Positions 23,951-28,986 of a stretch of DNA of 43,104 nt are shown here, piece after piece; positions within the stretch are counted from its first letter, which is position 1, and the number at the start of each line of letters is the position of its first letter. The stretch lies in the sequence record PZ445418.1; one strand, written 5' to 3'. Both the position numbers and the translations under genes were made by a program. The notes beneath the pieces were generated by a model that was not told the DNA's origin, ran no database searches, and saw nothing but the letters and a program-made list of their open reading frames with translations. The DNA comes from a phage.

Positions 23951-24533
23951 AAATAACCAACAAATTGCGGCCCCGTGGGATATTTGGAACTATTCATCGA
24001 ACCTATTCTTCAGGGCTGGCGATACCTACAGCATGATAAGTATACCGTTCGAACAGGCCGGGAAAATAAAGGTTTTTGGTGGTGCGGCTGGGTTTGGGTG
24101 GAAGACCGCTCGCACCATCTACGATACGGAAAACACGACCGTAGACTCTAACGGCTTCCTTAAGACCGCGTCGCCTATAGTAAAGGTTTTTAAAGACGGC
24201 AGTTTTGAGACAAACGAGCAATCGAAAGGTGCTACCGTAGAGCGAGTCTCTACTGGTGTTTACAAGATTTCCGGTGTTCTCGGCCTTAATTCCGAGGCAG
24301 TATGGGGTGGTGTCGGCGGCGGCTTTGAGATACCCGTGGACGTTAACAAGCAGGCCAGAATATGGCTTGATTATGAGGTTAATGCTGACGGGTCGATAGT
24401 TATGAAAACTTACCATCGAACACATGACTCGTCACCGTCTTTCGCTACCAATACAATTGACGGTTTTAATAATGGCGACCCAATTGATATCCCATCGGAC
24501 GCGTTCGTATCTGTTCGAGTTAACATGCCATAA
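23925..24533 (+). CDS. hypothetical protein, possible distal part of the fibre
   Basis: 202-aa ORF in a different frame overlapping end of 23654 ORF; in-frame GTG at 23943 after AAGGGG. Confidence 0.4.
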   Translation: MKLRGCVFRNNQQIAAPWDIWNYSSNLFFRAGDTYSMISIPFEQAGKIKVFGGAAGFGWKTARTIYDTENTTVDSNGFLKTASPIVKVFKDGSFETNEQSKGATVERVSTGVYKISGVLGLNSEAVWGGVGGGFEIPVDVNKQARIWLDYEVNADGSIVMKTYHRTHDSSPSFATNTIDGFNNGDPIDIPSDAFVSVRVNMP

Positions 24534-24568
24534 TGAGAAGGGGCCATCCAGATCGCAAATCAGTAATT

Positions 24569-24793
24569 TCATTTCAACTCCTCGATCAGATTCATACGAA
24601 CACCACGGGCAGAAAAAGCGTCACACACAAGATGCCAACGGGCGGTCATTACAAGCCAGCCGGTAAGGTCCATGCCGAGCAATTGCTCCGGGCGACTGAC
24701 CCGCCGCACTTTGTTCTCCCTCGGGTTAATTTGGTAGCGTTTAACAATTTCGTCCACGACGCGCATACTGCGGTCAACGACTAAGATATTCAT
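24569..24793 (-). CDS. hypothetical protein
   Basis: 74 aa from ATG (MNILVV), overlaps end of Dam gene. Confidence 0.4.
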   Translation of the reverse strand: MNILVVDRSMRVVDEIVKRYQINPRENKVRRVSRPEQLLGMDLTGWLVMTARWHLVCDAFSARGVRMNLIEELK

Positions 24794-25259
24794 GTAGCTC
24801 ACTCTCGCTCATTATTTCAATTTGCGCGCTGCCGGTGGGTGGCGCTTCGTCAAAGATTATCAATTGCTGGCACTTGTTATTGCTCGGACCGACTTCGCCG
24901 GTGACGGCGTGAATGAATCGAACACGCCAGTCCAGAAGAATTATCAGGTTTGCAGTCTTCCGGGCCAGCTTCGCCCACTTCGTCGACGTGTCCTGATTCA
25001 GTAGCATGACGGTCCGACGTCCATGCGCTGCGCACTCAACCCACGGCAGCGGATCGGAATACGGCGGGTTGCACCACTTCCACCCTTTCAGCTCTGACCA
25101 GTCCGCATCGAGCGCGCTGTGCTCTGCCGTGAAGTAACGCGGTAGCAGGTGGTTGGCATCGCTTGCCGCCATATCGTAACGGAATCGGTACTTCCGGCGC
25201 AGTGGTTTAAATAAAGCTGGCGGTGTGCGCCAGCTATCTTTTTGCTCACTCTTCTGCAT
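24774..25259 (-). CDS. dam: DNA N6-adenine methyltransferase (phage Dam family)
   Basis: 161 aa with NPPY motif (WKWCNPPYSD) and N-terminal W-R-T-P. Confidence 0.8.
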   Translation of the reverse strand: MQKSEQKDSWRTPPALFKPLRRKYRFRYDMAASDANHLLPRYFTAEHSALDADWSELKGWKWCNPPYSDPLPWVECAAHGRRTVMLLNQDTSTKWAKLARKTANLIILLDWRVRFIHAVTGEVGPSNNKCQQLIIFDEAPPTGSAQIEIMSESELHEYLSR

Positions 25260-25710
25260 GATCTGGATCTATCGCGTACAGGGCAATCTTTTCACCTTTA
25301 TTGATGACGCGTTGCACGCGCTTTGACTCCTCGGCACTAAGCGGGCGCGCGTCCGGGTAGAAGCTGCCGTTTGTAGGGTTACGCCACGCCATAAGCACCA
25401 AATCTTTACGGTCAACCTTAGACTGACGACCTTTGGGGGGCACGTATCCCTCGGCGCGTTTGCATTGCTCGCGCAGACCTTCGGCAGTGATGCGGTTTAG
25501 TGCAACGCTGGTGGTGTATCCGGTGCGCTGCATAATCCCCATCAATTCGAATAGCAGTTCGAAGCGCTCCTCTAGCTCCCGGCGCACTTTCTTCTCGCCT
25601 TCATATAGCGCCTGGTTGGAGTCCGCCAGCGCGTTCGCGCGTTCGGCCTGTTCGCGGGCTTCTAGGCATTGCGCGGCCCAGTATGCTTTTTCTTCTTGTA
25701 AAATTATCAT
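25246..25710 (-). CDS. hypothetical protein (first gene after promoter)
   Basis: 154 aa from ATG at 25710 with GGAG RBS; helical N-terminus. Confidence 0.5.
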   Translation of the reverse strand: MIILQEEKAYWAAQCLEAREQAERANALADSNQALYEGEKKVRRELEERFELLFELMGIMQRTGYTTSVALNRITAEGLREQCKRAEGYVPPKGRQSKVDRKDLVLMAWRNPTNGSFYPDARPLSAEESKRVQRVINKGEKIALYAIDPDHAEE

Positions 25711-25756
25711 CGTGTTGTCTCCAGGTATTAGAAAGGGCGTCCAACCGGACACCCTC

Positions 25757-25785
25757 AATATAATGCAACCAATAGGGTTATGCAA
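25757..25785 (-). promoter_or_regulatory. sigma70-like promoter TTGCAT-17-TATATT
   Basis: two TGCAACCAAT copies (25764-25773, 25781-25790); same hexamers as 38620-38648. Confidence 0.5.
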
Positions 25786-25790
25786 CCAAT

Positions 25791-26114
25791 TTACGAATAA
25801 AAATTTGGGTCGCGTGCAACGTCTACCAGATACAGATTGCTGATTCGGTTTCCGTAGTGGCCTGGTGTGCGCTGGCGGCACACAACGGCGTAGCCTGGAG
25901 GGATTGTATTGCCTGTCGCGATGATCCAAGCCACGCGCGCGCCGGATAGCGTCTTGCCGTTGCACTCGATGCGCGTGCCGCCATCGGCAGTGTTGAGGTT
26001 TCCAATCTTACATCCGGTGGACTTAAGGCGAATAACGCCGGTCTTGCTGTCGTAGGAGAATAACTGGTTAGTCATTGCAACCGAAAAATCAATGGCCTCG
26101 AATGTAGTATTCAT
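25791..26114 (-). CDS. HNH endonuclease-like protein (degenerate)
   Basis: R-V-A-W...G-N-R-I-S-N-L-Y-L-V resembles HNH_3 core, but first His/Asp positions not conserved. Confidence 0.4.
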   Translation of the reverse strand: MNTTFEAIDFSVAMTNQLFSYDSKTGVIRLKSTGCKIGNLNTADGGTRIECNGKTLSGARVAWIIATGNTIPPGYAVVCRQRTPGHYGNRISNLYLVDVARDPNFYS

Positions 26115-26806
26115 TTTAAATTTTCCTCATTGACTGCTATCGCGAAGCCGCGCGGGGTGAGTGAGCGGATTAATTTTGTACGAGCGGATTTACCACCGAG
26201 GCGACTATACTGCTTCGAGTACCCTTTTTCAACGAATACAGGCTTTTTCTCAGGCATACGAAAGCCGTTGCCGGTCCATAAGCAGGTCAACTTCGGATAT
26301 GAATCGCGGGCGTTGATGTATTCAGGGAAGAGCGGGTGTACGTCATCCTCCGGCAGATAGCCGCCATACTCCCACGGGTCAAACGAGTGGTCTGGCTTGC
26401 GCCACTGTGTGGAAAGCACACTGCGCGGATTTTCAATCATATATGGCACTTCGAAGAAATCGCCCAGGTAAGCTGCGATCTTCGCGGTGCGCACCGCCTT
26501 AAGCTGAAAGGCTGGGTCTTTCGCACGCTTGCGCGGGAAAGCTGGCGCGCCGCTCACTGCCAGATCAGTACAAGGCGGGAATGCGTAGATGATGTCCGGC
26601 GTGCCGAAATCGCCATTCATCGCACGGTCCACGAAATCCAGGTCGATAAACTCATTGCGATATCGGATCCCGCGACCGTAAATCCGGTAGTCCAGGTACG
26701 ACCCGTGATCGGCTTCGGAGTAGTTGAAGCAATAACACTTATGTCCCATCTCGGCAGCACGCTCGACCATCAAGCCGCTGCCGTCAAATAATGACCAGAT
26801 AATCAT
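26111..26806 (-). CDS. C5-cytosine DNA methyltransferase-like protein (compact)
   Basis: motif I-like LFDGSG, motif IV-like FPPC, motif VI-like ENP, in canonical order within 231 aa. Confidence 0.5.
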   Translation of the reverse strand: MIIWSLFDGSGLMVERAAEMGHKCYCFNYSEADHGSYLDYRIYGRGIRYRNEFIDLDFVDRAMNGDFGTPDIIYAFPPCTDLAVSGAPAFPRKRAKDPAFQLKAVRTAKIAAYLGDFFEVPYMIENPRSVLSTQWRKPDHSFDPWEYGGYLPEDDVHPLFPEYINARDSYPKLTCLWTGNGFRMPEKKPVFVEKGYSKQYSRLGGKSARTKLIRSLTPRGFAIAVNEENLK

Positions 26807-28263
26807 TTGCGCGCCTTTTTAGCTTTCATGTATTCCATCAAGTCGTCCTGGATATCTCGCTTACTGTCGCGACGTTCGGCGACCAGTTCATCCAGTGTGC
26901 CACGCGCCTGGATAATGTAGACGAATACCGGACGGGGGTGTCCGGCTTGCATCTGGCGAACCGGCCCTATACGCTCCACAATCTGCGAAAAGTGCTCATA
27001 GTTCCAGGTGTCTGAGAAGATAGCAAGGTGGTGCCCACCATCCTGCAAGTTAAGGCCGTGACCCGCCGATGCCGGGTGCGCGAACATGATGGGGATCTCG
27101 CCCCTGTTCCACGCTTCCATATCCTTATTGCCCTGCTTACCTTTACCCAACGCAACGCCGTGCGGAAATTTCTTCTTGAGACGCGCCAGATCATGCTTGT
27201 ACTGGTATGCGACGAGCAACGGTGCGCCGTTCAACTCCTCCACGATACTTTCCAGCGCGTCTAGCTTAGCGTCGTGAATCTTCACCCACTCGTCGGTCCG
27301 TTCGCCGTCTTCGTCGACTTTATACACAGCCCCCGAAGCAAGCTGAAGGCATTTAATAGTCTTCGACGCAGCGTTCGCCGCCTCCACAGTTCCGCTCTCC
27401 AGTTCGGCAAATAGCTCCGCCTCAAACTGGTCATAAATCTTGCGGGCTTTCTTCGGTAGATCCACAACAACCGGCGTATATATTGGCTTGTCACATCCGA
27501 AATATTCAGCCGCATCAACGGTTAGCGACACGTCTGACAGGCGTTGTTGTATTTCTTTCTCGGAGTTTTTTAGCGGGGCGTGCTGCATAGTGAAGCGGCC
27601 AGGCTTAACAGGCTTGCTAATAAACCAGCGGTCTGTGAATGCTTTATAGCTACTGCCGAGGCGTTCGCCACCGTCGACAAACCACGTCTGACCCCATAGG
27701 TCTTTCAGCCCGTTTGGTGCGGGTGTGCCTGTCAGGTTGATCCAGCGCTTGACGTGCTTGTGCGCAATCGCCGCCAGTGCGCGGGCGCGCTTACTTCCCT
27801 GCTTACTTCGATAGCCTTTCAGCTTAGTCGATTCATCGGCAACAACGACCGTAAAGGGCCACGCATCGCCGTAATAGTCAACCAGCCACTCAACCACATC
27901 ATAGTTAACACAAACCACGTTAGCGTTACTCTCCAGCGCGGCTATGCGGTCCTTCTCTGGCCCGGTGCCGTCTACGACCAGCAAGGCGGGGAATCGCCAT
28001 TTTTCTTGTTCCGGGGGCCACGTACCGGACGCAACGCGCAGCGGAGCCAGCACCAGCACGCGGTCATCTTGGTTTGACAGTATGCCAGTCTGGAACATTT
28101 TGTTCAGTGCCCACATTGTCGCGCCGGTTTTACCCGACCCCATTGTCGCCCAGATATTACATCGCTTATGCTTAAGGATGAACGCGGTAATCAACTTCTG
28201 ATATTCGCGGCGTCGGAATCGTGCCATATCTTTATTCCGCCTTTTTCCAGACTTCAGTTTCAC
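26803..28263 (-). CDS. SNF2-family helicase
   Basis: Walker A GSGKTG, Walker B-like VVVADEST, C-terminal helicase motifs HGLNLQ and Q-x-x-E-R. Confidence 0.8.
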   Translation of the reverse strand: MKLKSGKRRNKDMARFRRREYQKLITAFILKHKRCNIWATMGSGKTGATMWALNKMFQTGILSNQDDRVLVLAPLRVASGTWPPEQEKWRFPALLVVDGTGPEKDRIAALESNANVVCVNYDVVEWLVDYYGDAWPFTVVVADESTKLKGYRSKQGSKRARALAAIAHKHVKRWINLTGTPAPNGLKDLWGQTWFVDGGERLGSSYKAFTDRWFISKPVKPGRFTMQHAPLKNSEKEIQQRLSDVSLTVDAAEYFGCDKPIYTPVVVDLPKKARKIYDQFEAELFAELESGTVEAANAASKTIKCLQLASGAVYKVDEDGERTDEWVKIHDAKLDALESIVEELNGAPLLVAYQYKHDLARLKKKFPHGVALGKGKQGNKDMEAWNRGEIPIMFAHPASAGHGLNLQDGGHHLAIFSDTWNYEHFSQIVERIGPVRQMQAGHPRPVFVYIIQARGTLDELVAERRDSKRDIQDDLMEYMKAKKARK

Positions 28264-28450
28264 TATCCCAGTTCCTCTTTGTGGCGTCGTAGTTGGTGGC
28301 GTGTCCGACGTGGATACCGGTAGCCAGGAAGCTCTTAAATTTTTGCCAGCATACCGTCAACGGCAGCGGGTCATTCATGCCTGAGATAAACCATACGCGA
28401 TCGCCCGGTTTACATTCGCCCAGCTTGGTGAGTCTGTAATGTTCTTTCAT
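28232..28450 (-). CDS. hypothetical protein
   Basis: about 72 aa from ATG (MKEHY) after GGGAGA; overlaps helicase start. Confidence 0.35.
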   Translation of the reverse strand: MKEHYRLTKLGECKPGDRVWFISGMNDPLPLTVCWQKFKSFLATGIHVGHATNYDATKRNWDSETEVWKKAE

Positions 28451-28493
28451 CGTCATGTCTCCCAAAAATGGCGGGACAAGCCCGCCGTATTAA

Positions 28494-28667
28494 TTATTTT
28501 TGCTCTGCGCGGTAGCGGCGCTGCCGTTCGCGCTCTTTTTTATTGCGGCACGATTTGCACTCCGCCCGATACCCGTCCGGGCTGCGCGCAGTCTTGCCGG
28601 TGTACTTGTGGAACTGGGATAGCGGTTTAACGCAGCCGCAATTACTGCAACGTTTTTCTTCAATCAT
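28494..28667 (-). CDS. small zinc-ribbon protein
   Basis: 57 aa with C-x2-C ... C-x2-C and basic C-terminus; GAGGA RBS. Confidence 0.45.
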   Translation of the reverse strand: MIEEKRCSNCGCVKPLSQFHKYTGKTARSPDGYRAECKSCRNKKERERQRRYRAEQK

Positions 28668-28707
28668 CTCTAAAATCCTCGATATGGCTAACCGGCACAC
28701 TATACCG

Positions 28708-28986
28708 CTACGCGACCAATTCAGCAACCAATAAATCACAGTCGGCTATGTTGTCGATAACGCGAACGTCAGCACCGCGGCGGGCCATTCTCACATGCTC
28801 ACGTACCTGGTGCGGCTTCGGTTTTCCGCCGGGGCGCTTCACTTCGACGAACACTATGATGCCGTTGATTATGATAATCAGGTCGGGCGCACCCGCGCGC
28901 CCCTCCCATGCCAGTTTGCGGCAGAAGCCGCCTACCTCTTTCACCCGTCGCATCAGGTGACTTTGAATCTTGCCTTCGGGTGTCAT
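28708..28986 (-). CDS. VRR-NUC domain nuclease
   Basis: DLIII...FVEVKRPGGKPKPHQ PD-(D/E)xK-like core; 92 aa. Confidence 0.65.
   Translation of the reverse strand: MTPEGKIQSHLMRRVKEVGGFCRKLAWEGRAGAPDLIIIINGIIVFVEVKRPGGKPKPHQVREHVRMARRGADVRVIDNIADCDLLVAELVA

Follow-up and report, generated by a model that had tools for sequence, protein, structure and literature searches.

A predicted DNA-modification block with Dam and compact Dcm-like methylases in a Dhillonvirus coliphage

The stretch of phage DNA analysed here (sequence record PZ445418.1, 43,104 nucleotides; this whole stretch is called the window below) comes from a Dhillonvirus coliphage, and carries on its minus strand a block of genes that includes two predicted DNA methylases, a small Dam and a compact Dcm-like cytosine methylase of 231 residues. 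It is likely that this region is the DNA-modification segment of the Dhillonvirus replication operon, and that the two orphan methylases mark the phage DNA against restriction. The block is a conserved and already annotated feature of the genus Dhillonvirus, being found in about 150 deposited genomes, to which the window is 91-94% identical. Its principal genes, all of them on the minus strand, are the following.

26803 to 28263, minus strand: SNF2-family helicase of 486 residues, the first gene of the block (Pfam SNF2-rel_dom, E 9e-11; PHROG 62, E 3e-157).
26111 to 26806, minus strand: compact Dcm-like DNA cytosine-C5 methyltransferase of 231 residues (FDGSG at 7-11, Cys79 in PPC, Glu125 in ENP).
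25791 to 26114, minus strand: HNH_3 / I-HmuI-like protein of 107 residues, with Val78-Cys79 in place of Asp-His (PHROG 99, E 2e-16).
24774 to 25259, minus strand: miniature phage Dam, an N6-adenine DNA methyltransferase of 161 residues (PF05869, E 1e-35; PHROG 111, E 2e-55).

A megablast search with positions 24500-28300 matched 161 phage records, 143 of them with at least 80% query coverage at 80-95% identity. The matching records are almost all Escherichia and Shigella phages of the genus Dhillonvirus, including NHEP3 (93.6%), SO-1, StarDew, HK578 and SECphi18. The annotated gene order is common to the Dhillonvirus records: helicase, 'DNA cytosine methyltransferase', 'HNH endonuclease', a hypothetical protein or 'DNA ligase', 'DNA N-6-adenine methyltransferase', a small protein and a phosphatase. 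In the expert BASEL annotation of phage TheodorHerzl, the labels are 'Dcm-like C5 cytosine methyltransferase', 'putative homing endonuclease' and 'Dam-like N6-adenine methyltransferase'. Since the same order is annotated throughout, the cluster is a known one, conserved in a known genus.

The helicase stop codon and the methylase start codon overlap in an ATGA sequence, and a second ATGA overlap joins the methylase stop to the start of the HNH-like gene, so that these three genes read as one translationally coupled unit. A preliminary description of this DNA had placed a cluster of three minus-strand genes at 24774-26806, encoding Dam, the HNH-like protein and the 231-residue protein. All three open reading frames (ORFs) are present at exactly those positions, with database and homologue matches well beyond what chance would give, but the cluster holds one gene more, since a fourth ORF (25246-25710) between Dam and the HNH-like gene had been overlooked. 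The ratio of nonsynonymous to synonymous substitution rates (dN/dS), calculated against 14 relatives, is 0.019 for the 231-residue methylase, 0.023 for the SNF2 helicase and 0.026 for the HNH-like protein; the values for the rest of the block are 0.059 for Dam, 0.23 for the 154-residue ORF and 0.36 for a homologue of the Ksap1 protein.

The sequence of the 231-residue protein has been analysed by alignment with its homologues. The segments FDGSG (7-11), PPCTD (with PPC at 77-79), ENP (125-127), W135-R136 and the C-terminal LGGKS..TKxIRSLTPRG are invariant in 29 homologues. The motif I loop of C5 methylases corresponds to F7-D-G9-S10-G11, which aligns with motif I of M.HaeIII; motif IV is P77-P78-C79, where Cys79 aligns with C82 of the K42/KarlJaspers Dcm described below; and the motif VI glutamate is E125, within E125-N126-P127. 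The C5-methyltransferase motifs I, IV (PPC) and VI (ENP) proposed in the preliminary description are thus all invariant across the 29 homologues. As possible counterparts of motifs VIII (QxRxR) and X (GN[AS]V), conservation offers only W135-R136 and a C-terminal LGGKS..TKxIRSLTPRGFAxAV.

The Pfam C5-methylase profile PF00145 gave no match to the protein at E <= 0.1, and the only profile library match was to PHROG 757 'DNA methyltransferase' (E 1e-82). Three homologues at 61-63% identity do pass PF00145, with 24.7-28.5 bits against a cut-off of 22, over motifs I-IV only (profile positions 4-94). The best PDB sequence for the 29-member family profile was M.HaeIII, with motifs I and IV aligned, at a non-significant E of 0.56. 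Structure comparison gave the highest score for DNMT3B (14.1, with 187 of the 231 residues aligned), followed by DNMT3A and CmoX (8yf3), both at 12.5, the prophage CP-933R methylase (12.3), M.HhaI (11.5) and M.HaeIII (11.1). The fold is that of a standard C5-methylase catalytic domain. The preliminary description had named a methyltransferase-fold match as the test of its assignment, and structure comparison found this fold, with DNMT3B the best match.

The catalytic domains of DNMT3A and DNMT3B are the closest solved structures, but they share only 13-17% sequence identity with the phage protein. They are eukaryotic, have about 285 residues, work with partner subunits and target CpG, and nothing points to direct ancestry. 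E. coli Dcm and the M.EcoRII type, M.HhaI and M.HaeIII also have motifs I, IV and VI and the fold in common with the phage protein. However, the phage protein is about 100-240 residues shorter than the bacterial PF00145 enzymes (E. coli Dcm has 472 residues), and its C-terminal half is not recognised by the PF00145 profile. On account of this small size, it had been suggested in the preliminary description that there is little room for a target-recognition domain. The protein is certainly compact, but the stretch from the motif VI-VIII region to the C-terminal motif still offers about 66 residues (137-202). Of these, residues 137-182, which serve as a stand-in for the target-recognition domain, are conserved across the family as much as the catalytic motifs.

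The compact family is large. It comprises 2,889 clusters at 90% identity, of about 226-250 residues, and 1,932 clusters at 50% identity with E <= 0.001. The enzyme is present in 1,510 phage records, distributed among Dhillonvirus, T1-like Drexlerviridae, rV5-like and PVP-SE1-like phages, RB49, Klebsiella siphoviruses and others. An SNF2 helicase with 65-68% identity is found 2-6 bp after the compact methylase in phage contigs of ~10-45 kb (L021, L024, L027, L031, L042, L043, L045, L051, L054 and L068). This order is opposite to that in Dhillonvirus, where the helicase comes first, and the adjacency of the two genes has therefore been kept despite rearrangement.

The family has a member of known activity. 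Mutants of phage K42 (KarlJaspers strain) that escape the retron Ec86 (Eco1) all disrupt a 711-bp 'dcm' gene, whose product has a catalytic C82 together with E128, K175 and K176 (10.1101/2023.08.16.553469). When expressed alone, K42 Dcm raised 5-methylcytosine (5mC) on the Ec86 multicopy single-stranded DNA (msDNA), as measured by mass spectrometry coupled to liquid chromatography (LC-MS), and it was toxic only with Ec86 present; the C82A/E128A/K175A/K176A mutant gave neither the 5mC rise nor the toxicity (10.1101/2023.08.16.553469). The corresponding gene in KarlJaspers (Bas06, MZ501090) is bas06_0055, of 711 bp and 236 residues, and its product is 54% identical to the 231-residue protein over the full length (E 8e-87). 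Residues C82, E128 and K175 align with C79, E125 and K172, whereas the second lysine, K176, aligns with Leu173 in the Dhillonvirus protein. Identity to the KarlJaspers enzyme is 70% over residues 137-182 and 5% over residues 183-202. The K42 enzyme comes from a different phage family (Drexlerviridae), but it belongs to the same compact family of ~230-236 residues and is likewise a stand-alone enzyme without a restriction partner. Since this enzyme makes 5mC, the compact family has a genuine 5mC-forming DNA methylase among its members, and this speaks against a non-canonical activity. By analogy, the 231-residue protein most likely forms 5mC in DNA, and from the sequence alignment it is likely to have the same target as the KarlJaspers enzyme.

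The 161-residue Dam matches PF05869 with 123.1 bits (cut-off 28.1, E 1e-35), and its (D/N)PPY catalytic motif is N64-P65-P66-Y67; the preliminary assignment as an NPPY-type N6-adenine methyltransferase stands. It falls under the NCBIfam TIGR01712 equivalog cut-off (87.6 bits against 97.05), and PDB sequence and profile searches with it found nothing. PADLOC matches it to models of orphan (E 5e-11) as well as type II methylases. KarlJaspers has a larger Dam-like enzyme, to which it is 30% identical. The NPPY motif, small size and orphan status are all shared with the phage Dam family PF05869 (T1 Dam type), of which it lies at the short end of the size range. T1 Dam, a characterised member of PF05869, is reported to be specific for GATC, and the modification made by the enzyme described here is, by analogy, probably N6-methyladenine (m6A) at GATC.

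Most likely, Dam and the 231-residue enzyme are expressed with the replication genes and use S-adenosylmethionine to modify phage DNA as it replicates. Dam would add m6A, probably at GATC, while the cytosine methylase would add 5mC by means of Cys79 and Glu125, probably at CCWGG or a related site. Where host restriction enzymes have sites that overlap these marks, their action would be weakened; there would also be a cost, in that the cytosine methylase may be sensed by retron Ec86. Dual self-methylation as an anti-restriction device, already proposed in the preliminary description, is the conventional reading and a plausible one; we infer the target sites of both enzymes and the benefit against restriction. 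Another lineage also has a PF05869 Dam and a compact methylase no more than 3 kb apart (L063, L075 and L077-L085), a pairing consistent with two marks that are useful together. The window holds 156 GATC and 145 CCWGG sites, neither of which is avoided, and site frequencies in the window give no clue to the target motifs.

Some 6-bp palindromes show a strong depletion in the window: AAGCTT is absent (about 9-13 expected), and CTGCAG and GGTACC occur once each (about 10-12 and about 6-12 expected). No depletion is seen for GATC, CCWGG, GCGC or CCGG. Such a pattern suggests that, in addition to methylation, the sites of particular type II enzymes are avoided.

Several points weigh against a protective self-methylation by these two enzymes. 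A literature search found no methylation data for this phage or for any Dhillonvirus. In the BASEL collection, Dhillonviruses were comparatively sensitive to the restriction systems tested, and among the Drexlerviridae the methylase genes were not related in any simple way to restriction resistance (PMC8594841). The C-terminal LTPRGFAxAV of the cytosine methylase is not recognisable as motif X, and the protein has no significant Pfam, NCBIfam, PADLOC or PDB sequence match, so that its homology is shown by way of structure and the KarlJaspers homologue. The CCWGG specificity of the K42 enzyme was itself assumed from E. coli Dcm and is supported only by msDNA CCTGG mutants, the site being unmapped (10.1101/2023.08.16.553469), and the low identity to KarlJaspers in residues 183-202 means that the target of the Dhillonvirus enzyme could differ. 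Finally, at least five Dhillonvirus records have a deleted or split cytosine methylase, which makes this gene dispensable in the laboratory.

The deletion alleles are varied. TheodorHerzl lacks residues 181-219 in an in-frame deletion, metagenomic alleles lack residues 91-126 or 95-165, only 61 residues are left in Shigella phage 1b, and the genes of PS2, Opt212 and JohannBuxtorf are also deleted or split (sources: L003, 26863-27441; L005, 2989-3174; proteins P0004, P0012 and P0016). Two of the deletions are bounded by direct repeats of 6-7 nt (CGGCTT and CCGCGCA) that are present in the intact gene of the window. The alleles may reflect selection by defences that sense the methylase, such as retron Ec86, and their occurrence in several Dhillonviruses fits a cost-benefit balance for the cytosine methylase.

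The methylases could be active without having protection from restriction as their main role. By marking newly replicated DNA, they might instead evade or steer the mismatch repair and MutH of the host, or set the timing of replication, packaging or gene expression. The location of their genes within the replication operon, and the translational coupling to the helicase, would suit such a role. Wild-type E. coli methylates GATC and CCWGG, and on such hosts protection by the same marks would be redundant. A role of this kind also agrees with the BASEL phenotyping, in which methylase genes did not predict restriction resistance (PMC8594841). However, nothing in the present analysis supports a regulatory role directly, several isolates can do without the cytosine methylase, and the role conventionally ascribed to orphan Dam and Dcm enzymes of phages is restriction evasion on hosts that have other restriction repertoires (PMC3025963); we therefore regard this explanation as unlikely. 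It is less probable still that the compact enzyme has the non-canonical activity raised in the preliminary description, for example carboxymethylation with carboxy-S-adenosylmethionine like CmoX, a relaxed sequence context, or a preference for single-stranded, hairpin or replicating DNA. CmoX enzymes are recognised by an SPPC motif, an arginine in place of the motif X asparagine, and a CmoA gene, often with an amide ligase gene, in the same genome (PMC12783734). Here motif IV is FPPC, and the annotation of the syntenic TheodorHerzl genome lists neither CmoA nor an amide ligase. The LTPRGFAxAV segment is nearer to motif IX (TPRE) than to motif X, and Arg219 is at most a candidate equivalent of the motif X asparagine. 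In the structure comparison, DNMT3, HhaI and HaeIII score similarly to CmoX or better. Expression of the K42 homologue, moreover, produced 5mC by LC-MS (10.1101/2023.08.16.553469). A CmoX-like carboxymethyltransferase was accordingly judged unlikely, and the standard C5-methylase fold, together with the 5mC made by the characterised family member, speaks against a non-canonical activity.

A more speculative proposal, for which we see only a slim chance, is that the ~230-residue enzymes form a distinct minimal class of C5 methylases with a substrate range unlike that of host Dcm (another or a relaxed motif, hairpin or replicating DNA, or some use of carboxy-S-adenosylmethionine), that the recurrent natural deletions of the gene in Dhillonviruses are scars of an arms race with Ec86, and that the nuclease-dead HNH-like neighbour is a DNA-binding accessory of the replication and modification module. 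If true, such a substrate range would explain why the compact enzymes, and not host Dcm, trigger Ec86.

The HNH-like protein matches PHROG 99 'HNH endonuclease', but lies under the Pfam HNH_3 threshold (13.2 bits against 24.8, over profile positions 5-21 only), and PDB sequence and profile searches with it found nothing. Comparison by hhalign with I-HmuI (sequence identical to PDB 1u3e) gives a colinear alignment with an E of 0.32, which is not significant alone, and it is in this register that Val78-Cys79 are placed on the catalytic Asp74-His75. In both proteins an HNH-type segment comes after an N-terminal beta domain, and the NRxxNL signature is kept. The phage protein ends soon after the motif, and does not have the C-terminal DNA-binding domains of I-HmuI. 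The preliminary description had called it an HNH_3-like protein lacking the canonical catalytic residues, which agrees with the replacement of the Asp-His pair by Val78-Cys79. Elsewhere the positions of the pair are occupied by Arg-Cys, in a homologue from Edwardsiella phage eiAU, and by Thr-Leu, in a divergent Dhillonvirus-like contig. The AlphaFold2 model was unusable, with a predicted local distance difference test score (pLDDT) of 46 from five near-identical sequences. Most likely this constrained protein binds DNA without cutting it. The label 'HNH endonuclease' that is propagating through Dhillonvirus records is unsupported, and should be treated with caution.

It had been proposed in the preliminary description that the adjacency of the two genes is the remnant of a restriction-modification or homing cassette, in which the HNH-like gene would be a decayed restriction or homing endonuclease and the former partner of the methylase. 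There are reasons to consider this: the start of the HNH-like ORF and the stop codon of the methylase share an ATGA, the protein matches an HNH profile and has lost its Asp-His pair, and in eiAU a 40%-identical homologue also adjoins a C5 methylase, though a different one, and a Dam. However, a dN/dS as low as that of the helicase is not that of a decaying gene. The gene is covered to at least 80% in 160 of the 161 matching phage records, always at the same locus, and no matching Dhillonvirus record is without it, in contrast to the patchy distribution of mobile homing genes; it is a core gene of Dhillonvirus under strong purifying selection. The loss of catalytic residues, being common to eiAU, is old and stable. 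Universal presence, low dN/dS and shared catalytic loss together indicate a gene that is fixed and functional, and neither decaying nor mobile. It has been kept where the methylase is largely deleted (Shigella phage 1b and Opt212). In a sample of 80 viral contigs encoding the compact methylase, searched for 3 kb on each side, 66 loci do not have the HNH-like gene, which is present only in the 14 loci of Dhillonvirus type. No restriction enzyme is found in the syntenic annotated genomes, PADLOC gave no restriction-enzyme match for any of the five block proteins scanned, and no cognate restriction endonuclease was found beside the methylase, the neighbours being the helicase, the HNH-like protein, the 154-residue protein and the Ksap1 homologue. 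A remnant cassette is thus very improbable, and the role of the HNH-like protein is independent of the methylase.

A further candidate role for the HNH-like protein, as a specificity subunit of the methylase, was ruled out, because the K42 enzyme works alone and 66 of the 80 loci have no such partner, and also because the HNH-like protein persists where the methylase has been deleted.

The eiAU locus (L086, 852-4382) shows a similar block, with an SNF2 helicase, the HNH-like homologue, a C5 methylase and Dam. The HNH-like homologue has 151 residues and the same catalytic loss, and the eiAU Dam also belongs to PF05869. In contrast, its C5 methylase is a canonical PF00145 enzyme of 330 residues whose sequence has no detectable resemblance to that of the compact methylase, and hhalign of the compact family profile against it was uninformative (probability 0.7%). 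The gene order differs too, in that the HNH-like gene precedes the methylase in eiAU and follows it in Dhillonvirus. The presence of a different C5 methylase in this slot implies that the functions of the block are older than the particular cytosine methylase. From the sequences, the likeness looks like conserved synteny in related siphoviruses, with non-orthologous replacement of one gene.

The remaining features of the block lie between the HNH-like gene and Dam, and directly downstream of Dam.

25711 to 25790, minus strand: intergenic spacer of 80 nt, with the direct repeat ATTGGTTGCAT present twice.
25246 to 25710, minus strand: protein of 154 residues with no assigned function (PHROG 10530, E 5e-93).
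24569 to 24793, minus strand: Ksap1 homologue of 74 residues, directly downstream of Dam (PHROG 10685, E 6e-45).

The 154-residue ORF starts at an internal ATG of a listed reading frame of 239 residues. Its product has no Pfam, NCBIfam or PDB match, and forms 214 clusters; the matches listed all lie on contigs of Dhillonvirus size, and among them the protein is confined to Dhillonviruses. It is 77-93% identical among relatives whose methylases are 97-99% identical, and so evolves faster than its neighbours. PHROGs and many GenBank records call it 'DNA ligase', which looks like a mis-annotation passed on from record to record, and this unsupported label in Dhillonvirus records also calls for caution. 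In the spacer between this ORF and the HNH-like gene, the two copies of ATTGGTTGCAT are followed by TATATT. StarDew (gp33) and TheodorHerzl (bas14_0034) have an extra ORF of about 80 residues at this position. A consensus promoter scan gave 4 sites against 4.1 in shuffled sequence, and did not flag the spacer.

The 74-residue ORF is 58% identical to Ksap1, a 74-residue protein of SECphi18. Ksap1, one of the small proteins of Dhillonvirus, activates the defence protein KpAvs2, and natural escape variants have been reported (PMC11564622). The dN/dS of the homologue, the highest in the block, fits such variants. It provides context only, and lies outside the methylation function.

Upstream of the block, at 28470-28486 on the minus strand, a GC-rich hairpin with a T-run after it (GGCGGGCTTGTCCCGCC ATTTTT) is found between an 81-residue zinc-finger ORF (28494-28739) and a 77-residue ORF (28232-28465). 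One possible role for this element, lying as it does upstream of the helicase-methylase unit, is that of an internal terminator or attenuator.

It may be added that the block occurs at >90% nucleotide identity to that of coliphage Dhillonviruses in MG065648.1, OQ221563.1, OQ291023.1 and GQ502199.1, records that carry the names Campylobacter phage A144, Acinetobacter phage NJ01, Salmonella phage Kenya-K19 and Sodalis phage SO-1. The stated hosts are questionable for at least some of these four deposits.

The methylation block is thus already known, and one member of the methylase family has been characterised functionally. The compact Dcm-like family is widespread, with more than 1,500 phage records and, at 50% identity, about 1,900 clusters, and a first map of its exact target site would help to predict which restriction systems and retrons are evaded or triggered by these therapeutic-candidate phages.

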